From an uncultured delta proteobacterium (GTDB lineage Bacteria > Myxococcota_A > Polyangia > Polyangiales > Polyangiaceae), in assembly GCA_963696385.1 (NCBI GenBank), contig CAVOKF010000004.1, positions 512,001 through 576,000 of the forward strand: 64,000 nucleotides of DNA, written 5' to 3'. Positions within the stretch are counted from its first letter, which is position 1. Each line of letters starts with the position of its first letter. The translations under genes were made by a program, and so were the position numbers. Shown one piece after another: positions 1 through 10,372 of this stretch. The notes beneath the pieces were generated by a model, which worked only from the letters and a program-made list of their open reading frames with translations, ran no database searches and had not been told where the DNA came from.

Positions 1-461
1 GGCAGGCTCGGCGTCGCGCGCGCTCGCTCGAGTACCGCGAAGACGCGCGCCTCCGCCAAGTGCCGGGACGGCTGGCCGCCGTCCCAGACGAGCTGCACCC
101 CGGCGACGCCCGCGGCGCGCAGCGCCTCGACGATCTCGCCCACGCGTCGCAGGTTCCGCGGGGTGACCGGAACGATCGCGATGGCGCCGGCGACTCCCAG
201 CCCGAGGCCGGCGAGGGCCTTGCGCGACCGTACGCGGACGACCGGGAGTTCAGCCGGCGCTTTCGCAGCGGCTCGTCGCAGCGCCCGCGCCATCGCGACG
301 GCCAGCTGTCGCGCGAGCGCGGCGTCCTTCACCGAAAGGCCGATTCGCGCGACTGCGTCGCCGGAGGTGTCCGCCTCGCCGACGGAGAGCACGATGCCTC
401 CGGGATGCTGGGCCGCGGCGCGCGCCGCACGACGCGCATCACGCCGGACGACGATCGCCAT
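1..461 (-). CDS. Partial hypothetical protein running off the window edge; resembles the C-terminal beta/alpha part of a radical SAM barrel
   Basis: My own translation from ATG at 461 (MAIVVRRDARRAARAAAQHPGG...AIAIVPVTPRNLRRVGEIVEALRAAGVAGVQLVWDGG) is open to position 1. It overlaps the end of the upstream rSAM gene and is absent from the ORF track because it has no stop in the window. Confidence 0.55.
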   Translation of the reverse strand, partial: MAIVVRRDARRAARAAAQHPGGIVLSVGEADTSGDAVARIGLSVKDAALARQLAVAMARALRRAAAKAPAELPVVRVRSRKALAGLGLGVAGAIAIVPVTPRNLRRVGEIVEALRAAGVAGVQLVWDGGQPSRHLAEARVFAVLERARATPSL

Positions 462-1764
462 CGCGGTCCGTTCCCGTCGGGCGGAAGAAACAGTTGTTCA
501 TGCACGTGAGCGGGCACGACGCGATCATCGCGCGCGTCTTCGCGTAGGCCTGCGAGTTCCAGAGCTCGCGCAGGCTCACGTGGCGCGCATCTCCGTGCGA
601 CCAGGGGAGCCGGTAGCATGGCTTGACGAAGCCGCGGTGATCGACGCCGAGGAAGGTTTCGCCCACGTGGCACGAGACGCCGAGCGCGGCGCGCGAGGAG
701 TTGTCGAAGTACCGACGGAAGAGGGCGAGCCGCTCTTGCGACAGGTTGAGGAAGCGCGGATGCTCGCGTGCGATCGCGGTGAGGTCCTCTGCCATGCGCG
801 CGATCGCGGGTCCGTCGGCGCGCATCGGCCACAGCGTGGCGAGCATCTGCACGTCGTCCTTGCGGGTGATTCGGTCACCGTCAATGACGCCGTGCTGGAG
901 GTTGACCGGCTGCACGTTGAAGCCGTTGCAGCCGGTATCGTGCGCCCAGCGCGCGAGATTGGCGATCTCGGCGATGTTCGCTCGCTGGATGACCGTCGAG
1001 ACATTCACGAGCAGCTTCGACGGCCTCGCGTCGCGCGCGGCGACGAGCCGGCGCACCGCGCGGAAGGCGTTGTCGCGGGCCCGCGGGACGCCGGTGATGG
1101 CATCGTGCATCGCGGCGGTCGCGCCGTGGATGGATACGGAGACCGAGACCTCGCGTCGCGCGAGCTCGGTGGCGACCGCTTTCGAGATGCGGAATCCGTT
1201 GGTCGTGACGTTGACGCGCAGGCCGAGGGCGTTGGCGTCGCGGATGTACGCGAGCATCTCGGGGTCTCGGAACGGCTCGCCCTTGCCCGTCAGTGCCACA
1301 CGCCCCACGCCCCACGCCGCCACGTCCGCGAAGAGCGCGCGCACGTGGTCCGGCGTCATCGTCTCAGGATCGCGCTTGGTCACTCGGTTCTTGCACATGA
1401 CGCACTCGAGACCGCAGAGATCGTTGGTCGAAATGTCGACCGCCGGGGGAGGCAGCGTGTATGGGCGGCCGGTCGAGAGGCGGACCAAGACGCCGCGCGC
1501 GTGCAGCCGTCGGAGCGCCGGGACGAGGGCGCCCTCGTGCGAGACCACCGTGCGATCGGGCGTCTCGTCGACCGCGCGGACGACTACCGTAACCGCCGGC
1601 GGGGCAGCGTGCGCAGGCGCGCCCGCGATGCGAAGGAGCAATTCGAGGTTTGCGGGTTCGACGTGCCAGACGAGCGAGCGTCCGGTCGCTAGCGCGGCGC
1701 GTGCGGTGGCAAGGGCCTCTGCGGGCGCCGGCGTGCCGCTCGCGAAGAGGTCTACCGCGTTCAT
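439..1764 (-). CDS. Radical SAM protein with SPASM/twitch domain
   Basis: CxxxCxxC (LCGLECVMC), TGKGEP, VTTNG, SVSIHG; C-terminal SCHVG...GFVKPCY...CPLTCMNNC. ATGA overlap with the upstream fusion gene. Confidence 0.9.
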   Translation of the reverse strand: MNAVDLFASGTPAPAEALATARAALATGRSLVWHVEPANLELLLRIAGAPAHAAPPAVTVVVRAVDETPDRTVVSHEGALVPALRRLHARGVLVRLSTGRPYTLPPPAVDISTNDLCGLECVMCKNRVTKRDPETMTPDHVRALFADVAAWGVGRVALTGKGEPFRDPEMLAYIRDANALGLRVNVTTNGFRISKAVATELARREVSVSVSIHGATAAMHDAITGVPRARDNAFRAVRRLVAARDARPSKLLVNVSTVIQRANIAEIANLARWAHDTGCNGFNVQPVNLQHGVIDGDRITRKDDVQMLATLWPMRADGPAIARMAEDLTAIAREHPRFLNLSQERLALFRRYFDNSSRAALGVSCHVGETFLGVDHRGFVKPCYRLPWSHGDARHVSLRELWNSQAYAKTRAMIASCPLTCMNNCFFRPTGTDRDGDRRPA

Positions 1765-4700
1765 TGTGCCGCAACCTCCTCGATCGCCGCGAAGAGGTCA
1801 TGGGTACCTCCCCTGCAGTTCATGCACACGGGCATCGCCGAACGCCCCGCGAGCATCGCCGCGCGGAACGCGCGGTACCTCTCGCCGCCCCAGATCTCGT
1901 CAAACGGCGTCTCGAAGACGTTGCCCATGACGAAGGCGTCGCCCATGTCCGGCCGGAGGTAACAGCACGGGGTAACCGAGCCGTCGACGTTCACGACGGT
2001 GTGGTCCCAGGGCATCGTGCAGAAGGGGTGGTGGGCGTTGTGCGTCCCGTCCTCGCGGTAGCGCGAGAGCAGCTTGGTCGTCGGCACAAGATGGCGCGTG
2101 GCGTCGTCTTCGGCGCCGACCGTCTTGATGCGCAAGTGGTCGGTGCCCCAGACGCCCGCGAGACGCCGGATCTCGTCGAGCTCGTGCTCGTTGTGCCGCA
2201 TGACGATGAACTGGAGGTCGATGATCGGATGCGTGAGATTGCGTCGCTTCTTTTCGGCGCAGATCCAGGCCACCTGCTCGGCGACGCGTGCGAAATCGCC
2301 GCCCTTACGGAAGACCTCGTAAGTCGCCTGGCTCGCGCCATCTACGCAAAGGATGAGCACGTCCAGGCCGGACGACAGGAGCCTTCGGCCCTTCTCCCCG
2401 TCGAGGAAATGGGCGTTCGACGAGACCTTGACGACGCGGACGCCGGCGGCCTTCGCCTTGCCGATGATCGCCGGCAGATCGCGGTGCAGAAGCGGCTCGC
2501 CGTAGTTCCAGAGGGCCAGGGTCTGGAGGCGCGGGGTCAGGGCCCGCACGACCGAGTCGAACCGCTCGACGCTCATCTGCGGCTTGGGCTTGATCTTCCC
2601 CTTGCCGGTCGGGCACGTCGGGCAGCCGAGGTTGCAGAGGTTCGTCGGCTCGATCATCGCCGCGCGCGGGCCCTCGGCCGGGGCGTCCGACAGGTAGCGC
2701 GCCAGGTCGGGCGGTGGGATTACGCGGACGCCGTGCGCGGCGAACAGCCGCTCCAGGGCGTGCGCTTCGGGCACCGCGGCCATGGCCATGGGCCACGAGG
2801 CCTGCGCCTCGCGCGAGAGGAATATGCGAACGCTCGTGATCTTCGCGAACGACGCGTCGGGTAGAACCGCCAGGCGCTGGAGGAGGGCCTCACCGTCCTG
2901 CATCGGCACGACCTGCACCACGCGAGCGCCGCGGATGAACGGGAGCGCGTAGTCCTGGAACTCGGCCCCGACGAAGCGGCGAAGCTTCATCTCGACGAGA
3001 GGACGGTGACCGAGCGCCTGGCAATCCGACAGCGCCCCGGCGAGAAGCGACACTCCATCCTCCATCGCGCGCAGGCGCACGACGCCGCCCTTGTTCACGA
3101 TCTTCGCGAACGTCGCGCGCCGCTTCGCCGCCGCTACGCGCCGCAGCATCGCGTCCTCCTGCGCGAGACGTAGCAGCGCGACGCCTGTTGTCGCCTCGCG
3201 GAGGGCAGCCCGCTGTGCGAGGGCCCGGGCGCTCGCGGCGGGGCCCGGATCGCCCGCGAGCGCGGCTCGGAAAGCCCGGAGAGGGCGCAGCGCGACCCCG
3301 CGGCGCAAGATCGAGGTCCAGCGCTCCACGATTTGCGCGGTCCGTGTCGTCGTCGAAAAGCGTTGGGCGGCACGCGCCCGTCCGCGGTTCCCCATCTCGC
3401 GCATGCGGCAGGGGTCCGCGAGGAGCGACGCGAGCGCGCGCGCCGTGGCCGAAGCGTCCGCCGGCGGCACCAGGACGGCTGTCGAGCCATCGGCCACCGC
3501 CTCCGGGATCCCGCCCGTGCGCGTCGCGACGACCGGAAGGCCACTTGCGGCTGCCTCGAGCAGCGCAACGCCGAAGCCCTCGACGTCCGTTGCGCTCTCC
3601 TCCGAAAGGAGCAGGAAGACGCGGGCCATGCGGTAGATCGCGGGGAGATCGCCGTCGTCCACCATGCCTATGGCGCGCACCCGGTCGACGATTCCGAGCT
3701 CCCTGGCGAGCGCTTCGAGCTCGGGGGATAGGCGCGCGCTCTCGCCGGTATAGACGTACAGGGCGCGAGGCCGGTGTCGCAGCACCTCGGCCATCGCGCG
3801 CAGCGCTGTCGCGTGTCCCTTGCGCGGGACGAGGCGCGACACGGTGAGGACTACTTCGTCGTCCGGGGCGATCCCCATTCTCGACGCGAGCAGGACCTCT
3901 GCTGGGCCCGGACGGAAGCGGACGGAGTCGACCCCGTTCTCGACGACTTGGATCGCGGCGCGGCGTGCGCCGGCCAATCGGGCGAGACGTGCGGAGAACG
4001 AGGAGACGGCGATGACCACGTCGGCGGCGCGGAGGCCGCCCACGAGCGATGCGCGGTAGGCGGCTTCCTGTCCGTCGTGCCGCGCCCACGGGGCGAGCAG
4101 GTCGTTGCCGTGAACGTTGATGCTGACGGCTGCTGGGAAAGCCGCGCGGAGCGCGGGCACCCAGGGCGCAAGGCCCGCGTTGCATAGATGAACGACGTCG
4201 GGCGCGTCGACGAGCAGCGCGTCGAGCGTGGCGAGCAGGTCGCTCCAGAGATTCATACCCGAAGAAAAGAGCCGGCGCACCGTGCCCTGGGGCAGCCCTG
4301 ACGTTTCGGGGCCGAAGTGTCGCGTCGCGTAGACACGAACGTCGATTCCCTGGTCCAACAGGCCCAACGCCAGCGTTCGCGCCACGGTCTCCATGCCCCC
4401 GAAGCGTGGCGCGAACTCGTGCGCGACGAGGACGACACGCCGGACCTCGCGCCCGGCGCGGAGAGGCCGCAGCACGGCGTCGGCGGTCGTCCGGTTCCCG
4501 GGCACGAGGGGCCGCTTGCGGTGCGCCTCGGTCATCGATGCGAGCGTGCCGGGCGTCAGGAGGAGAGCTTCGAGCCGATCGGCGATCGATCGGGCGTCGG
4601 GGCGGGCAAGCACTGCGGCGCCCATGTCGGCGAGGCGCCGAGCGCGCGCCATCTGGTCCTCTGCGTGGCGGTGCGCCGGCACGAGGATCGCCGGCTTGCC

Positions 4701-5528
4701 GAGCGCGCGGATCTCCGCCACCGAGTTGTAGCCCGCCTGCGAGACGATCACCGACGCCCGCGCGAGGAGAGCGGCTAGGTGGTCGCACGAGCGGGTTACG
4801 TCGAGGCCCGGGACGGCGTCCAGGTGGTCCGGCACCTCCCCGTACGGCCCCGTGACGAGCACCGTCGAGAGCCCCGGAATGCGGGCGTGCGCGAGGATGT
4901 GCGCGTCGGCGGCGGCTCGCAGGAACCGTCGCGCATCGACCGGCTGTCCTCCGCCGCCCGCCATCACCACGACGTGCGGAGCTTTCACTCTCCGCGGGAG
5001 CTTCGTGTCGAGCGCGCGGACGACCGTTCCCGTAACGATGACGGGCAGGTGTTGCTGGCAGCGCAGGTCGACCTCTCCCGCCTCGTGCGGAACGACGATG
5101 CGGTCGAACGCGGCAGATGCGTCGCTCGCCAAAAAATTCGCGAGGGCGTCGCGACGGAGCTCGCGTTGCACGAGGACCGTTCGCGCGCCGATGGACGCGG
5201 CGAAGTGCGCGAGCGCGGTGGGCGCGTGGGTGTCGAAGACGACGAGGTCGGGCCGGAAGGCGCGCAGGGCGGCCGTCATCGCGGCGTACTCGAGCGGCGC
5301 AGGCAGGGCTCGACGTACGCGTTCCGGGTCAGCGTGCGGTTCGGCAAGGCGCGGGGGAAAGCTCACCAAGTCGAAGCCTGCGCGCGTTACCACCGACGTA
5401 TCCGCGGCATTCGTGAGGACGAGGATCTGGGCCTCGGAGTGGAGCGTCCTCACCTCGGTCGCGATGGAGGTTGCCCGGACAACGTGTCCCAGGCCGACCC
5501 CATTGATGGCGTGAAACGCGATTCTCAT
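1761..5528 (-). CDS. Multidomain fusion: GT28/MurG-like glycosyltransferase + GT4 glycosyltransferase + radical SAM + SPASM (~1255 aa)
   Basis: GT28-like: NGVGLGH, QAGYNSVAE, EDQMARA. GT4: FGGME, VSRLVPRKG, EGFGVALLEAAASGLPVV. rSAM: EPTNLCNLGCPTC, NYGEP. SPASM: CTMPW...DGSVTPCC...CMNC. Start placed at ATG 5528 (MRIAFHA), which forms an ATGA overlap with the upstream stop. Confidence 0.9.
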   Translation of the reverse strand: MRIAFHAINGVGLGHVVRATSIATEVRTLHSEAQILVLTNAADTSVVTRAGFDLVSFPPRLAEPHADPERVRRALPAPLEYAAMTAALRAFRPDLVVFDTHAPTALAHFAASIGARTVLVQRELRRDALANFLASDASAAFDRIVVPHEAGEVDLRCQQHLPVIVTGTVVRALDTKLPRRVKAPHVVVMAGGGGQPVDARRFLRAAADAHILAHARIPGLSTVLVTGPYGEVPDHLDAVPGLDVTRSCDHLAALLARASVIVSQAGYNSVAEIRALGKPAILVPAHRHAEDQMARARRLADMGAAVLARPDARSIADRLEALLLTPGTLASMTEAHRKRPLVPGNRTTADAVLRPLRAGREVRRVVLVAHEFAPRFGGMETVARTLALGLLDQGIDVRVYATRHFGPETSGLPQGTVRRLFSSGMNLWSDLLATLDALLVDAPDVVHLCNAGLAPWVPALRAAFPAAVSINVHGNDLLAPWARHDGQEAAYRASLVGGLRAADVVIAVSSFSARLARLAGARRAAIQVVENGVDSVRFRPGPAEVLLASRMGIAPDDEVVLTVSRLVPRKGHATALRAMAEVLRHRPRALYVYTGESARLSPELEALARELGIVDRVRAIGMVDDGDLPAIYRMARVFLLLSEESATDVEGFGVALLEAAASGLPVVATRTGGIPEAVADGSTAVLVPPADASATARALASLLADPCRMREMGNRGRARAAQRFSTTTRTAQIVERWTSILRRGVALRPLRAFRAALAGDPGPAASARALAQRAALREATTGVALLRLAQEDAMLRRVAAAKRRATFAKIVNKGGVVRLRAMEDGVSLLAGALSDCQALGHRPLVEMKLRRFVGAEFQDYALPFIRGARVVQVVPMQDGEALLQRLAVLPDASFAKITSVRIFLSREAQASWPMAMAAVPEAHALERLFAAHGVRVIPPPDLARYLSDAPAEGPRAAMIEPTNLCNLGCPTCPTGKGKIKPKPQMSVERFDSVVRALTPRLQTLALWNYGEPLLHRDLPAIIGKAKAAGVRVVKVSSNAHFLDGEKGRRLLSSGLDVLILCVDGASQATYEVFRKGGDFARVAEQVAWICAEKKRRNLTHPIIDLQFIVMRHNEHELDEIRRLAGVWGTDHLRIKTVGAEDDATRHLVPTTKLLSRYREDGTHNAHHPFCTMPWDHTVVNVDGSVTPCCYLRPDMGDAFVMGNVFETPFDEIWGGERYRAFRAAMLAGRSAMPVCMNCRGGTHDLFAAIEEVAAQ

Positions 5529-6595
5529 GGTGCGTCCCGATCGAGCAGGTGGAGTAAAGCCTCCGCCGCGCGATCTGCCCCGCAGGGGATGAGCGTCGGA
5601 CGTGGCGCGCTCTCCATCCACTCTACGGCTGAGGCAAGGCTCTCGCCGTTGACGCGACCCAGCGAGCGCCCCAGGCCGGCCTCCTCGAAGCGGGCCGCCC
5701 GGCCGGCCTGATCGTCGAACGCACGCGGCATCGCGAAGAGCGCCATCGGGACTCCGGCCTTCGCCAGCTCGTGCGCGAGGTTGTACCCGGCCGGCGCGAT
5801 CGCGCCGTCGAAGGCCGCCAGTAGTGGCTGCAACGGCGTCTCCGCGATGCAGCGAACCCCCGCGAGTGCGGGTCGCTGGCGAGCCAGGGGTCCCACCGCA
5901 AGGACCGGCGACGGGGCGCCGTGCATCCGTGCCAGCGCCGTTGCGGCACGCAGACCCTGCTCGACCGCCTCCTCGTCTCCGCCACCGCCCGAGGCGACGA
6001 GGATCAGTCTCCCCTCTCGGGGGAGGCCCAGGCGATCCCTCGCTGCGTCGCGCGGGATCGCGTCGTCTGCTTCGAACAGCGTGATGGGCGGCACCCGCAC
6101 GACTGGGATGGGCAAGTCCTCCACCTGGTGCGGCCGAGGGTCGTCCGGGACGATCGCCAGGTTGTAGTCCGAGAGCCCCTCACCGGCCGCGCCCGCGCGC
6201 GCGCGGTCCGCTCGAACGCTCCGGCGAATCAGCGCCCGGCGCGCGATGCCACGGACGAGGCCGGAGAGCTCGCCGTGTGGCCCCCACGGGAACGTATCGG
6301 TGACGAGCAGGTTGGGTCGGAAAGCTTCGATTGCCGCGCGCACGACCCGCGTGCCCACGTCGCTGCGGACGGTGTCCGGCCAGCCGCTGCGCCGGGCCAT
6401 CCACGGTCCCGGCCAGCGCACGGCGGCGATTGGCTCGACGCGGAGGACGGCGTCGGCCTCCGAGGTCGTGGCGAGCAACAGCTCGAGCAAGTCCGTCTTG
6501 CGCCGTAGCGCGCGGGCGATCGCCAGCGCGCGAGTGACGTGACCGGCGCCCAGTCCGTCGTTGGCGAGCAAGAGGGCCCGTAGCGGTCGCATCAC
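5525..6595 (-). CDS. GT28/MurG-like (GT-B) glycosyltransferase
   Basis: ANDGLGAGHVTRA, DTFPWG, SGGGG, PAGYNLAHE, DDQAGRA; clearly paralogous to the N-terminal domain of the downstream fusion. Confidence 0.85.
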   Translation of the reverse strand: MMRPLRALLLANDGLGAGHVTRALAIARALRRKTDLLELLLATTSEADAVLRVEPIAAVRWPGPWMARRSGWPDTVRSDVGTRVVRAAIEAFRPNLLVTDTFPWGPHGELSGLVRGIARRALIRRSVRADRARAGAAGEGLSDYNLAIVPDDPRPHQVEDLPIPVVRVPPITLFEADDAIPRDAARDRLGLPREGRLILVASGGGGDEEAVEQGLRAATALARMHGAPSPVLAVGPLARQRPALAGVRCIAETPLQPLLAAFDGAIAPAGYNLAHELAKAGVPMALFAMPRAFDDQAGRAARFEEAGLGRSLGRVNGESLASAVEWMESAPRPTLIPCGADRAAEALLHLLDRDAP

Positions 6596-6924
6596 GACAC
6601 CTCGCCGACGCTGCCGGTCCCGCCGCGGTTGCCGCCGCCCCTGCCTGAGGCGCCGTCTAGTGGGCGAGCGGCGTCCCCGTCCCGGGAGGCGTCACCGATA
6701 GGCGGGTATGCGGCGTCGGCCTCCCCGTCTAGGTCGACGAGCGTGCTGTCCGCCTCGACGTCGGCCCCGACGAGGAAGTGATCCGGCGCCGCGTCGTAGT
6801 CGATGGGCGGTGCCTCGGCGTCTTCGCTGACGCAAGACGCCGGAACGAAGGCGGCGGTGGCGCCGAGGATGGCGCCTACGGACGCGTCGCGGACCCGCGA
6901 CCGCCCCTTGGGGGGTGAAGCCAT
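6592..6924 (-). CDS. Small (110 aa) Asp/Ala/Gly-rich exported or lipoprotein-like protein, first gene of the GT/rSAM operon
   Basis: GAGGAAATC-ATG ribosome-binding site; basic N-region, hydrophobic stretch, then PASC; acidic low-complexity body; stop overlaps the next start. Confidence 0.65.
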   Translation of the reverse strand: MASPPKGRSRVRDASVGAILGATAAFVPASCVSEDAEAPPIDYDAAPDHFLVGADVEADSTLVDLDGEADAAYPPIGDASRDGDAARPLDGASGRGGGNRGGTGSVGEVS

Positions 6925-7121
6925 GATTTCCTCGTGCGCGAGTCGCGAGGCTATGGCGTCCCCGCGAGCCACGCAACGGAAGAGCGGCCGGCGCGCCATC
7001 CTTTCGCCGCCAGCGGAGCCGCGCCAGCCACTAATTCGCTTGACGTAGCGATGCAGCCCGTTCCAAATCGCCGGCTGCGGGGCATGGCTCACGGCCGTCT
7101 TGCCTAGTTTCGGAGGTCTCG

Positions 7122-8666
7122 ATGGGTCGCCGTGCCGTCGTCGGAATCTGCGCGCTGGGGAGTGCACTCGCGGTGGAGGGCAGCGCTCTCGCGCAGTCGG
7201 TTCCTGCAGCATGCGACGCCGTGCAAGAACATCGTCGCGACACGGTTATCGTCTTCCAGCCGCCGTCGTCGTTCACGATATGCCGCGACGGCTCCATCGA
7301 AACGGGCGTCGGCACCGATCGTAGCGTCTATCTCCAGCTCTCGCCCAACGCGGCGGCGCCGCGCATGTTCGATTTCCGCGTTCGCAAGAACGCCGGCGAG
7401 TGGACTCCCCTCGGACTCCGGGGGTGGGAGACGCGGGCTTCCGAGATCACGGGCAAGCTGCGTGAACTCGATCATTCGGGCGAGCCGATCGCGGATGTCG
7501 TCGTCCCTGTCGACATACCTCCACCGACGCCTTTGGGCACGCTGGCCACGGCCCGGACGCGGTATCTCGCCGACGTCACTCCGCGCTACCTCGAGGCGCT
7601 GCACGCCGTCCGCAGCGAGGCGCGCGAGCTCCCGGTGCTGGCGGGCATCGCGCGGCGGTGGTGCGGAGCGCTCGCGGCGCAGCCTCCGGGCGTCCTCCCG
7701 GCCGAGGTGGAGGTTCGCGCCATGTGCTCCGCGCCAGATCTGCGCGAGGGTGCCATCGAGAAGGCCGTCTGGGATTTCGAATCGGCCGCGGTGAAGGAAA
7801 GTACCGAGAGTTCGCATGCTCGCGACGCGACCCTGGCGGCTGTGGCGCATCCGGAGGATGGCAAGGCTGTGAACGACGCCGTGCGCGCGCTTGAAGACGC
7901 GCGCGGGGCCGCCGAAGCTGTGGTCTCCGCGGGCCACGCGCTGCGCGAATCGAGCGCCGCTCTGGCGCGCGATGTGGCCCTGTTGCGCGCCACGGTCCGT
8001 TCCATCGACGCCCTTCGACCGAACATCCCCGTCTATCTCGCGATGTACTCGACGGCGGGCAACGCCGAGCTGGAGATCGAGGCGACGCCGAGCGACGTCG
8101 CCGGAACGGACTCCGACGCCGCTCACTCGAGCAAGGGGAACGTGACGGGGCGCTTCCCGATCTACGGGCGGCATTATCTCGACATTGAGGTTGGTCTCGG
8201 CTGGACGGCGGGAGTGCCCGATTCGCCGTACGTCCAGACGATTCAGGGCAACCAGGTCATCCAGACCAAGCCGGTGGACGAGTTCGTCGGCTTTGCGCTC
8301 GTCGAGCTCGAGCCGCTCCGGTTCGCTTGGCCGGAGCGCCCCCTCGCGGGCCTCCTGCGGATGCCGGTCATCGCCATTCCGTTTACGCGCGACCCGACGT
8401 CCAATTTCTTCGTCGGAGGGGGTCTCGGCTGGACTGGCGTCGGGTCGGTGACGGCCGGCCCGTACTTTTACCGAGAGACGACGCTGCGGCAGGGGTTCTA
8501 CGACAATGAGACGCTACCGAGTGGCGTCCCGTTCGGTGCCGTCACCGTGCCGGGCCTGCACGTTGGATACTTCCTGTCCGCCAGCGTCAATCTCGTCGGC
8601 CTCTATCATCTCATTGTTCCGTCGCGCGCTCCGACGATCGACGGGTTGACGGGGAAGCCAAAGTGA
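7122..8666 (+). CDS. Secreted hypothetical protein (helical middle, beta-rich C-terminus)
   Basis: GGAGG RBS; signal peptide ending SALA-Q; 514-aa ORF with GC3-rich codon usage. Confidence 0.75.
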   Translation: MGRRAVVGICALGSALAVEGSALAQSVPAACDAVQEHRRDTVIVFQPPSSFTICRDGSIETGVGTDRSVYLQLSPNAAAPRMFDFRVRKNAGEWTPLGLRGWETRASEITGKLRELDHSGEPIADVVVPVDIPPPTPLGTLATARTRYLADVTPRYLEALHAVRSEARELPVLAGIARRWCGALAAQPPGVLPAEVEVRAMCSAPDLREGAIEKAVWDFESAAVKESTESSHARDATLAAVAHPEDGKAVNDAVRALEDARGAAEAVVSAGHALRESSAALARDVALLRATVRSIDALRPNIPVYLAMYSTAGNAELEIEATPSDVAGTDSDAAHSSKGNVTGRFPIYGRHYLDIEVGLGWTAGVPDSPYVQTIQGNQVIQTKPVDEFVGFALVELEPLRFAWPERPLAGLLRMPVIAIPFTRDPTSNFFVGGGLGWTGVGSVTAGPYFYRETTLRQGFYDNETLPSGVPFGAVTVPGLHVGYFLSASVNLVGLYHLIVPSRAPTIDGLTGKPK

Positions 8667-8714: not shown

Positions 8715-8830
8715 CGGGCAGAGCGAATGCGAAGCTTCCCGCGAGCCCAACCGCAATCTCGTTGCCTTGAAGCTGAGCCTCAAGCTCGGATCGCTCATCG
8801 TCGCTAAGCTCGGCACGTCGATGCCCTTCA
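8715..8830 (-). mobile_element. Possible degenerate IS630-family transposase N-terminal remnant
   Basis: Minus strand reads ELSDDERSELEAQLQGNEIAVGLA and, after a frameshift, (R)KLRI. This resembles the IS630 HTH start 'L(S/T)xEERxEL...GLARRARIVL' as remembered. No DDE region or terminal repeats found. Confidence 0.35.
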
Positions 8831-10069
8831 CGGAGAAAGCGCTGCCGAGATGAACCGCCCCGGTAGCAGCGATGCGCCAAAGATCGACTGCGCTTCGAGC
8901 CAGTAGAAGCCCGTCGCCGCAACCACAGCGCCGGGGTCGCCCGTGAGGCGGGCCATAACCACAAAGGGAATCAAGAAGAGCGCATGCCACGGCATCGTCT
9001 GGGGAGTCATCGCGAGCATGAAACATTGCCAGACCATGGTCAGCACCAAGAGCCAGTGCCGGGCACTCGCGACATAGGCGACGATGAACACCAGAGGGAC
9101 CGCAAAGTCCCAGGTGCTCTGTCCCCGAAAGGTGAGCTGTTTGTAGAGAATGACGTTCGTTTCGGGGAATCCGCGCAACAAGGGGTAAAGGAGAAAAAAC
9201 GGGTACGCCGCCAGCCCGACCATGGCCGCCGAGAGGGCGATCTTCTTGGCGAAGCAGACGCGATCGCCGGCCGAGTCCCGGCCCTTCCAGACCTGGAAGA
9301 GGGCGACTGCGAAGAGAGGTGCGTACCAAAGCGCCCGATAGTGGAGAAAGACCCCCGCGCTTAACGCCAATAGGGCATCCGCCCCTCGTTCGCGCGAGAG
9401 ATAGTAGACGCCAAGCGAGACCGCGGCAATCGCGATGGGGTCATACATACCCGAAAGGCTCCACCCGATGATCTGGCAGTAAAGCAATGCGAACAACCCC
9501 GCGAGCAGCCAAGCGTAGACGGCGGGTGTGCGCGCCGACCTCTCAAACAGCGCGCGGAACAGCAGCCACAGCAGAAAGTGTGCGCCGCAGAGGTACTTGA
9601 GTCGGGTAAAGACGCTGATAAATCGCAGGCTTGCGTTCGTGTGGGCGAACAGCCACGCCTCGGGCGCGGAGTAGAGAAGCGAACCAGGCGGATAAGGTTG
9701 AGGATAGTCCTGCCAGTTGACAAAGAATGGCCGCCTGCCTTTGGCGCCCGTTGCTTCGCAGATGTCGCAATCGGGGACGTTACTTGCTTTGGCGTAGGCA
9801 TGGGCCTCCGGCGTATCTCTCGCGTGACAAAAGCTCTTGCTCGGCCTCTTGTAGACGTCGAAACCGTAACGGGCGAAGAGCAGTACGTGCCCAAAGTGAG
9901 ACACGCTATCGCCGTTGCCCAAAATTAGGTCCCCGGGCCGGTACACGTGCAGCACAACGAGCGCACAGAGCAACCAGGAGAGTGCGAAGGCGACGATCTC
10001 TTGCCGGACGAGGGGCATGTGGCCTTGTCCTGGCCTTGCCCCGTCTCGTTTCGTGTTCGCCGATGTCAT
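8828..10069 (-). CDS. Polytopic membrane protein, possible GT-C (GT87-like) glycosyltransferase
   Basis: Many hydrophobic segments; large first loop with GDSVSH and PYPPGSLL; GMYDPIAI. Visibly lower GC than its neighbours. Confidence 0.6.
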   Translation of the reverse strand: MTSANTKRDGARPGQGHMPLVRQEIVAFALSWLLCALVVLHVYRPGDLILGNGDSVSHFGHVLLFARYGFDVYKRPSKSFCHARDTPEAHAYAKASNVPDCDICEATGAKGRRPFFVNWQDYPQPYPPGSLLYSAPEAWLFAHTNASLRFISVFTRLKYLCGAHFLLWLLFRALFERSARTPAVYAWLLAGLFALLYCQIIGWSLSGMYDPIAIAAVSLGVYYLSRERGADALLALSAGVFLHYRALWYAPLFAVALFQVWKGRDSAGDRVCFAKKIALSAAMVGLAAYPFFLLYPLLRGFPETNVILYKQLTFRGQSTWDFAVPLVFIVAYVASARHWLLVLTMVWQCFMLAMTPQTMPWHALFLIPFVVMARLTGDPGAVVAATGFYWLEAQSIFGASLLPGRFISAALSP

Positions 10070-10372
10070 GGCCACGCAGTGAGAAATCCGCGCGACGATC
10101 TAAACTGCTGTGAAGTGACCTCGTCAAGCGGCGCCAGGGCTTGATGGTGATGTCTTCGGATCAGAGCTTTCCTCGAGAACTGGCGCACGGTCGGGTACTC
10201 GGGATCGATCTCGCCTCCTCACCTGAAGGCGTGCGGTCTTGAGCTTTCCGACAGCTGGGGCCATCGGGACCAGCGGGCGCTGCATTCGGAAGACGGATGG
10301 CTGACGCCGCACGTGGCCGTGGCGCATGCCCGGGTGGGGTCGAAGCGAACGCAACCGGGCGCCGGTCCCGAC

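Follow-up and report, generated by a model that had tools for sequence, protein, structure and literature searches.

Mycofactocin, as presented in PMC3023750, derives from a sporadically distributed system in which a radical S-adenosylmethionine (rSAM) enzyme (MftC, TIGR03962), a GT2-family glycosyltransferase (GT; MftF, TIGR03965) and the protein MftB (TIGR03967) accompany MftA, a small protein whose C-terminal motif is conserved, and it is in this combination that it resembles the locus reported here. The latter is a cassette of five minus-strand genes, A to E, situated in a window of 64,000 nucleotides (C4:512001-576000, the whole stretch of DNA that was analysed) of an uncultured delta proteobacterium with a genome of 6.94 Mb and 66% guanine plus cytosine (GC). 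It encodes a small protein with a two-part C-terminal tail (gene A), a GT28-like glycosyltransferase (gene B), a fusion of two GT domains with a rSAM enzyme (gene C), a second rSAM protein (gene D) and a partial-barrel-like protein (gene E). The cassette is real, conserved and, as far as searched, undescribed: full-text literature searching, with most subscription papers and supplements outside its coverage, found no description of it. Our preferred interpretation, to which we give a little less than even credence, is that the tail of gene A acts as a carrier: a trisaccharide would be assembled on it and then radically tailored.

In respect to mycofactocin there are several differences. The cassette has three GT-B domains (GT28-like and GT4), whereas mycofactocin has one GT2; it has two twitch-type rSAMs and neither a match to MftB or to the recognition element (RRE) of RiPPs (peptides made by the ribosome and modified after translation), nor a creatininase-type peptidase; and its putative carrier, of 100-320 aa, comes on two scaffolds with a D/E-V/I/L-S tail and has an exported partner. 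Sugar-tailoring enzymes provide a second set of comparisons. The best match of the gene C rSAM in the PDB, in a single-sequence search, is BtrN, the twitch rSAM dehydrogenase of butirosin (E 7e-11), the four twitch cysteines of both being aligned, and an additional cysteine of gene C, C1189, recalls the extra cysteine that acts as hydrogen donor in the epimerase NeoN according to PMC10991966; HygY is a further epimerase of this group. Unlike BtrN, to which its match is distant, the gene C rSAM is fused to two GTs and a dead barrel, is not accompanied by aminocyclitol genes and has C1189 at the place of a phenylalanine. In the blasticidin S pathway BlsD transfers UDP-glucuronate and the rSAM enzyme BlsE subsequently acts on the uronic acid, a succession of GT and rSAM on a sugar which the cassette could share. 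Indeed, gene D has the CxxxCxMC motif of BlsE, its best single-sequence PDB match (E 2e-10). However, its score with the BlsE equivalog model TIGR04466 is 60.8 against a cut-off of 400 bits, the match is confined to the core and SkfB ties with BlsE by profile; also, gene B has no match of the cytosylglucuronic acid synthase type among the NCBIfam rows.

Microcin E492 and the siderophore-microcins offer a further parallel in that their chemistry takes place at the C-terminal residue of a protein, the terminal serine of microcin E492 carrying a glycosylated group. The scaffold peptides of the pearlins (PMC9303977, PMC9016710) belong to this comparison too. Unlike these systems, the cassette has no family match to the corresponding ligases, esterases or oxidases, and combines an acidic DLD...DVS tail with rSAM tailoring. 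Finally, lipopolysaccharide (LPS) and exopolysaccharide (EPS) clusters contain stand-alone twitch rSAMs, relatives of the gene C rSAM at 32-40% identity, beside GT4 genes, but carrier, partial-barrel and GT28-like genes are absent there by the cassette models and the cassette is without a shared flippase or polymerase. By analogy, the cassette would seem to work as a hybrid between mycofactocin-type precursor systems and the sugar tailoring of BtrN, NeoN and BlsE.

A conserved fusion within a conserved cassette

The five genes are connected by the junctions TGATG, ATGA and ATGA, followed by a 23-nt overlap. All of the coupled genes proposed in an earlier interpretation of the window's letters (the sequence-only reading) are present, and the last, interrupted by the window start, is complete in the genome. 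That reading also described gene C as a four-domain megaenzyme with the order GT28-GT4-rSAM-SPASM, which holds, although a fifth module is found at residues 775-955. The recurrence of this architecture was analysed in 121 proteins obtained at E<=0.001 among 8000 candidates scored, from which the module models were also built. All four scored modules are present at >60% model coverage in 86 of the 119 non-self matches listed to gene C; the remaining 33 comprise ten GT4-only strangers, three proteins devoid of the rSAM and others of which most look like fragments. Among the three, P0091 has the rSAM swapped for two SAM-methyltransferase domains, P0082 lacks it through a clean deletion that spares the last residues, and P0105 is apparently frameshifted; the swap and the deletion are the behaviour expected of a tailoring module. 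In agreement with a genuine fusion, one contig of run X2, which may come from the source study itself, covers positions 410-7200 without a gap and with 13 substitutions, spanning the domain junctions. A lost stop codon or a mis-assembly as origin of the fusion is ruled out by the homologues and this contig. Near-identical DNA is present in peat, wetland and soil metagenomes, and no RNA dataset holding such a sequence was listed.

Conserved synteny, suggested earlier as a check, is indeed observed: the order B-C-D-E is maintained in 33 foreign loci wherever sequence is present, with exceptions at L002 and in the decayed copies L033 and L037 (the pairs L126/L003, L026/L116 and L034/L123 look duplicated and hence are not independent). 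At L002 the exception is a third twitch rSAM inserted between genes D and E (L002:16172-17362), in a metagenome-assembled genome (MAG) labelled Planctomycetia. Both decayed copies adjoin a gene for a short-chain dehydrogenase/reductase (SDR), L037:10001-12128 being without genes A and B upstream and L033:429-4170 having lost both rSAMs and kept gene E. Named sources of homologues are Polyangiaceae, Kofleriaceae, Labilithrix, Byssovorax and Pendulispora, besides the single Planctomycetia MAG, and in a tree using 27 homologues gene C falls in a supported subclade with P0005-P0011 and P0013. The distribution is sporadic, as the fusion occurs in none of 30 other genomes of the same genus and in 6 of 401 genomes of a class sample, four of them from a second family. 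The cassette has a GC content of 71% compared with 66% for the genome, and the flanks of 18 loci have in common only four families, each at two loci (SDR, kinase-like and two others). From this spread, the unrelated flanks and the GC content we infer that the cassette is a mobile, self-contained unit. No flippase, polymerase, sugar-synthesis or glycan export gene is shared among the flanks of these 18 loci, and neither is a protease.

The two-part tail of gene A

The gene A product appears, from sequence comparison, to exist on two unrelated scaffolds whose sole common part is the tail xDLD-(13-44 aa)-[DE][VILA]S-COOH. The form found here is short, with a predicted lipoprotein-signal-like N-terminus (basic region, hydrophobic stretch and Cys31) and without a winged helix-turn-helix (wHTH)-like domain; the small size and acidic linker agree with the small acidic exported protein of the sequence-only reading, while export stands as a prediction. 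Three distinct homologues and one near-identical one have the same build and retain DSTLVDLDGE[AV]D, the end E[VI]S being present in 3/3. In the relatives, a long form of around 200 aa lies directly before gene B; it has a probably winged-helix-like N-terminal domain, judging from its motifs, with no Pfam match at cut-off, followed by a variable linker and the tail VDLD-(about 19 aa)-DYDVS. Many of these linkers contain a poly-His run before the VDLD box (e.g. L121:7029-7634 and L122:7053-7670), which might bind metal.

At 13 of the 14 loci found by the family model the long form ends in frame with D[VI]S, the fourteenth being frameshifted with its tail in another frame, and 18 of 25 family representatives (50% clustering) end with D[VILA]S and have an xxLD box 13-24 aa upstream, counts that depend in part on the tail since the model included it. 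A further 18 of 43 family-model matches had been excluded as repeat proteins covering model positions 8-57 alone (two were inspected). Across 32 aligned sequences, picked among tail-bearing ones, L65 and D66 are invariant and D64 is conserved in at least 90%. The box is reminiscent of the FNLD/FDLD box in the leaders of class I lanthipeptides, and it reads FDLD in P0130 and FNLD in P0132. As a background, [DE][VILA]S endings are present in 3 of 2453 plausible open reading frames (ORFs) of the genome, a count whose GC filter left out gene A itself, and no further tail-bearing substrate was seen in this genome by regular expression or models. The long form is single-copy and, among 383 genomes of the family, occurs in 13 of the 14 other fusion carriers and in one fragmented genome.

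The terminal serine is encoded by four different codons and lies between -3 and 269 nt from the next gene, which indicates that the tail is selected as protein and not as DNA. A by-product of translational coupling or of a ribosome-binding site is ruled out for the relatives on these same grounds; in the genome under study the GAGG within E-V may double as the ribosome-binding site of gene B. A ribosomal precursor with a conserved recognition motif and a core beside enzymes corresponds, as a pattern only, to that of RiPPs. The conservation of a two-part C-terminal tail in a small protein favours the option of a glycosylated protein.

Catalytic and accessory domains

All three GT domains have intact catalytic motifs. 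The GH histidine, DT, glycine loop, GYNxxxE and DQ are motifs of active inverting GT-B enzymes, and gene B has H18, D99, GGGG, GYNxxHE275 and D294-Q295, conserved in 17-19 of 19 sequences (H18, D99, E275, D294 and Q295 in 19/19), its counterpart at the N-terminus of gene C having H15, D99, GGGG, E272 and D291-Q292 (86-88 of 88). The two are full-length paralogues, as shown by hhalign (probability 99.8, 328 columns). This is in line with the assignment of the second gene as GT28-like in the sequence-only reading, even though gene B lacks a PF04101 match and has as best Pfam match EryCIII-like_C at E 0.064, while the gene C domain scores 45.8 against a PF04101 cut-off of 22 bits. Weak matches of gene B include MurG, MGT, YjiC and sterol glucosyltransferase, and neither protein reaches the murG equivalog model. 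The GT4 domain of gene C meets the PF00534 and PF13439 cut-offs, and GGME, R569-K570 and E650-x7-E658 are each conserved in 88/88. On gene C as a whole Pfam places Glyco_tran_28_C at 222-335, GT4 at 376-718, Radical_SAM at 959-1120 and SPASM at 1170-1238, and on gene D Radical_SAM at 113-273 and SPASM at 365-425; Pfam assigns no family to genes A and E, nor to gene B at cut-off, and none of the NCBIfam models shown reaches its cut-off for the cassette proteins.

Membership of genes C and D in the radical SAM superfamily is evident from their PF04055 scores (45.4 and 49.6 bits, respectively; cut-off 29.5). The core of gene C has C965-x3-C969-x2-C972 and YGEP, the cluster cysteines being conserved in 88/88, and that of gene D has CxxxCxMC in 23/23. 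The auxiliary cysteines are C1170/C1188/C1189/C1235/C1238 in gene C, i.e. four ligands in the BtrN-type spacing C-x17-C ... C-x2-C plus the invariant C1189, and C365/C383/C417/C421/C425 in gene D, where the spacing C-x17-C ... C-x3-C-x3-C is a variant of the twitch pattern. PMC3023750 ties the motif C-x2-C-x5-C-x3-C to peptide substrates, and this motif is found in 0/88 homologues of gene C and 0/23 of gene D, each of which has five auxiliary cysteines and not seven or eight. Both rSAMs thus appear to have one-cluster twitch-type cysteine sets and not a peptide-type SPASM domain. A complete rSAM/SPASM module, as proposed earlier for gene C, is therefore too strong a description; in the second protein so designated, gene D, both Pfam domains are confirmed but the five-cysteine set is twitch-like.

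These observations bear on the possibility that the system is a mycofactocin-like RiPP pathway, in which one rSAM would act on the peptide (the terminal Val-Ser could, for example, be decarboxylated or cross-linked), a host protease would free the core and the GTs would decorate it later. Such a pathway is favoured by the grammar shared with mycofactocin (PMC3023750), namely a sporadic cluster, an rSAM, a GT and a short gene whose product has a conserved motif at its C-terminus, as well as by the tie between SkfB and BlsE for gene D and the SDR gene found just downstream of the cassette here. However, SDR neighbours occur at few loci, the peptide-type motif is missing, neither Pfam nor NCBIfam gives a PqqD/RRE match, the extra module of gene C modelling as a partial barrel, and the NCBIfam mycofactocin rSAM model gives 68.1 bits for a cut-off of 265. 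We regard this possibility as rather improbable.

The relatives of the enzymes are also compatible with a product of another kind, a glycoside of a small molecule or lipid that would resemble aminoglycosides, nucleosides or glycolipids. The tail would then be no substrate but would serve docking or regulation, tying the complex of enzymes to a wHTH protein or, in this genome, to the membrane. According to PMC10991966 and PMC3715490, rSAMs act on sugars in the neomycin and blasticidin pathways, in the latter after glycosyl transfer; the weak matches of gene B include sterol and macrolide-type glycosyltransferases; the gene C rSAM has its relatives among GT4 arrays (a biased observation, as the query held both domains); and the cassette has no detected RRE or protease. 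On the other side, no aglycone-forming or sugar-nucleotide gene is common to the 18 loci, a strictly terminal hydroxyl residue on two scaffolds would suit a reacting group better than a tether, and the decayed copies have lost genes A and B together (L037) or both rSAMs (L033). We consider a glycoside of this kind unlikely, although it is the strongest of the competing explanations. GT4-rich glycan clusters (L045, L068, L078, L089, L092 and L099) harbour a large group of stand-alone twitch rSAMs, many of them with the CC pair; a single locus can have as many as four.

Besides the catalytic domains, the cassette has accessory modules that lack cysteine motifs. Residues 775-955 of gene C are conserved and Pfam-less, and are modelled with high confidence (predicted local distance difference test score 94) as a long basic helix plus a partial (beta/alpha) barrel. 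The top structure match in VIA is the pyruvate formate-lyase (PFL) activase domain 3can (Z 6.8, root-mean-square deviation 4.1, 127 aligned residues), followed by AbmM, QueE, PFL-AE and NifB at Z 6.0-6.5, tied with unrelated barrels, and Foldseek gives no match at E<=0.001. From the model, this module is likely a cysteine-less rSAM-like half barrel. Gene E has a weak likeness to rSAM/TIM barrels (TM 0.46-0.51, from a poor model), so that the partial rSAM-barrel-like ORF of the sequence-only reading is upheld weakly by structure, but not by hhalign, whose probability with the gene D core is just 22.6. In fact, this is the best value obtained among the three accessory modules (gene C module 3, gene E and the N-module of gene D) and the rSAM cores, none being significant, and it is the fold that suggests a shared origin of the accessory modules. 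ESM Atlas yields no usable feature match for gene E or for the 450-aa protein F described below. PMC10352776 mentions pseudo-rSAMs that occur next to genes for rSAMs and precursors.

Partners, layout and proposed pathway

Two further genes accompany the cassette. Gene F (450 aa, ending FAKRF[AT][YF]) follows gene E in 23 of the 24 foreign loci whose sequence extends to this point (e.g. L121:14368-15720). Its model shows a helical solenoid and a winged helix of PadR/MarR-like type that contains a helical insert (Z 5.7-5.8 with PadR/MarR structures); the best fold match is a J-domain helical hairpin (Z 7.5) and there are weak TAL/mTERF-like repeats. Naming a family by fold was rejected for gene F, as for gene C module 3, their best Z values being below the family-naming level. 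Gene G, a convergent gene adjoining gene E, which the sequence-only reading did not include as the window ends before it, is present in 14 of the family's 383 genomes, and 13 of these belong to the 15 carriers of the fusion; the three discordant genomes are 59-76% complete. Gene G is taken as a member of the cassette system. It has 242 homologues, no known family and an EF-hand-like DxNxN-type loop. Here its product has a signal peptide without cysteine, and in 76 of 120 relatives it is a lipoprotein by a loose pattern; judging from this one genome, gene A may in this lineage have taken over the lipid anchor from gene G.

The winged-helix proteins raise the question of a nucleic-acid-directed or anti-phage system, in which DNA or nucleotides would be the targets to which they direct the GT and rSAM domains. 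The patchy spread and the GC difference would fit such a system, as would the wHTH-like domains of long-form gene A (by motif) and gene F, the weak repeats of the latter and weak GT4-conflict and viperin scores. However, this genome has the enzymes and the tail, and neither gene F nor the long-form wHTH protein was found in it; the exported partner co-occurs with the cassette; and PADLOC 2.0 run on 8 proteins returned weak viperin matches and nothing else, corresponding to generic rSAM (E 7.5e-5 to 6e-12). We judge this explanation very improbable.

Table 1. Position and description of the cassette genes, their modules and gene G (window positions unless C4 or L136 is given).
Feature	Position	Strand	Description
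Gene A	6592..6924	-	predicted carrier/substrate of 110 aa; N-region basic, followed by hydrophobic stretch, Cys31, acidic linker, two-part tail
Gene A VDLD box, residues 63-66	6727..6738	-	predicted docking motif
Gene A terminal EVS-COOH	6595..6603	-	predicted modification site; DVS/DIS/DLS in relatives
Gene B	5525..6592	-	355 aa; stand-alone GT28/GT1-like GT-B glycosyltransferase
Gene C, whole	1761..5528	-	1255 aa; fusion, five modules
Gene C module 1, aa 1-355	4464..5528	-	GT-B of GT28-like type, paralogous to gene B
Gene C module 2, aa 364-740	3309..4439	-	GT4 retaining glycosyltransferase
Gene C module 3, aa 775-955	2664..3206	-	basic helix and cysteine-motif-less partial (beta/alpha) barrel; predicted docking/assembly module
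Gene C module 4, aa 959-1120	2169..2654	-	radical SAM core
Gene C module 5, aa 1170-1238	1815..2021	-	BtrN-type twitch domain
Gene D	439..1764	-	441 aa; N-terminal alpha/beta module of ~105 aa without Pfam match, then rSAM core and five-Cys twitch-like domain
Gene E	1..461; full C4:511916-512461	-	181 aa; runs 85 bases past window start; cysteine-less partial-barrel-like accessory protein
Gene G	C4:511389-511919 = L136:1389-1919	+	81 bases left of window start; convergent exported protein, adjoins gene E

The coordinates are given in Table 1. No promoter-like site was found at the locus. Upstream of gene A the window contains two genes without Pfam match that are absent from the other cassette loci: a divergent one (7122-8666, plus strand) for a 514-aa exported-looking protein with a helical middle and a beta-rich C-terminus, and one of lower GC (8828-10075, minus strand) for a 415-aa polytopic membrane protein, which gives the impression of a GT-C-type membrane glycosyltransferase.

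The sequence-only reading had proposed, for a pathway not characterised before, either glycan synthesis with radical tailoring or the glycosylation and modification of a protein. A conserved unit for glycosylation and radical tailoring is supported by the synteny, the intact catalytic motifs and the sugar-enzyme relatives, and the protein option gains from the tail, whereas an LPS/EPS pathway producing bulk glycan finds no support, the flanks of the 18 loci lacking a common flippase, polymerase or sugar-synthesis gene. The interpretation of the tail as carrier is preferred because it is the simplest one that uses all the parts. What is observed is the order of the genes, the anatomy of their domains, the conservation of residues and, on two scaffolds, of the tail, and the co-occurrence; from this we infer each of the following steps. 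The tail would be docked to the enzyme complex through its xDLD box, perhaps at one of the three partial-barrel modules without cysteines, and these dead barrels would serve as docking or assembly modules. Gene B would attach the first sugar to the terminal serine (at its hydroxyl or carboxylate), and the GT28-like and GT4 domains of gene C would add the second and third. The BtrN-like rSAM of gene C may then epimerise or oxidise a sugar carbon, with C1189 as candidate hydrogen donor, and the BlsE-like rSAM of gene D may dehydrate or decarboxylate a uronic acid. The glycosylated tail would finally be displayed or released outside the cell and bound there by the exported gene G product. A more elaborate version, which we advance only tentatively, is that a new class of C-terminal modification of proteins exists, in which DLD...[DE]VS is a portable tag, transplantable between unrelated scaffolds, that steers a complex held by the dead half barrels to build the serine trisaccharide and remodel it there with the two rSAMs. 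The result would be a glyco-signal for export or a tag at the surface, and the exported partner would read it.

A number of points weigh against the carrier interpretation. A C-terminus may just as well be conserved simply for binding, and gene F could bind the gene A tail. Regarding the tail itself, besides the partial dependence of the family-model counts on it, 7 of the 25 representatives lack it and match the front of the model only, presumably because of truncation; a separate set of 20 long-form ORFs was chosen by its ending; and the three short-form homologues were compared as proteins. As to the enzymes, the matches to BtrN and BlsE are distant and would leave the chemistry unfixed: by profile gene D matches BlsE (E 9.6e-11) and the peptide-modifying twitch enzyme SkfB (E 1.1e-10) equally well, and the CC pair is present in 21 of 39 outside-cassette relatives examined (27 parsed). 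Also, Pfam, NCBIfam and module modelling identify no protease, transporter or RRE domain in the cassette, which means that recognition and release would proceed without known machinery.

If the carrier interpretation is true, a glycan built and remodelled on a protein tail would be categorically new, and the radical remodelling of a glycan at a protein's terminal serine would join the rSAM tailoring of antibiotic sugars with mycofactocin-style precursor systems. With five to seven genes the system is small, its candidate substrate comprises few residues, natural domain-swap variants exist and homologues occur in named species (Pendulispora), which makes it directly testable. A short portable tag for site-specific C-terminal glycosylation would, if confirmed, be a tool, and the system would provide a tractable model for the many twitch rSAMs of glycan clusters.

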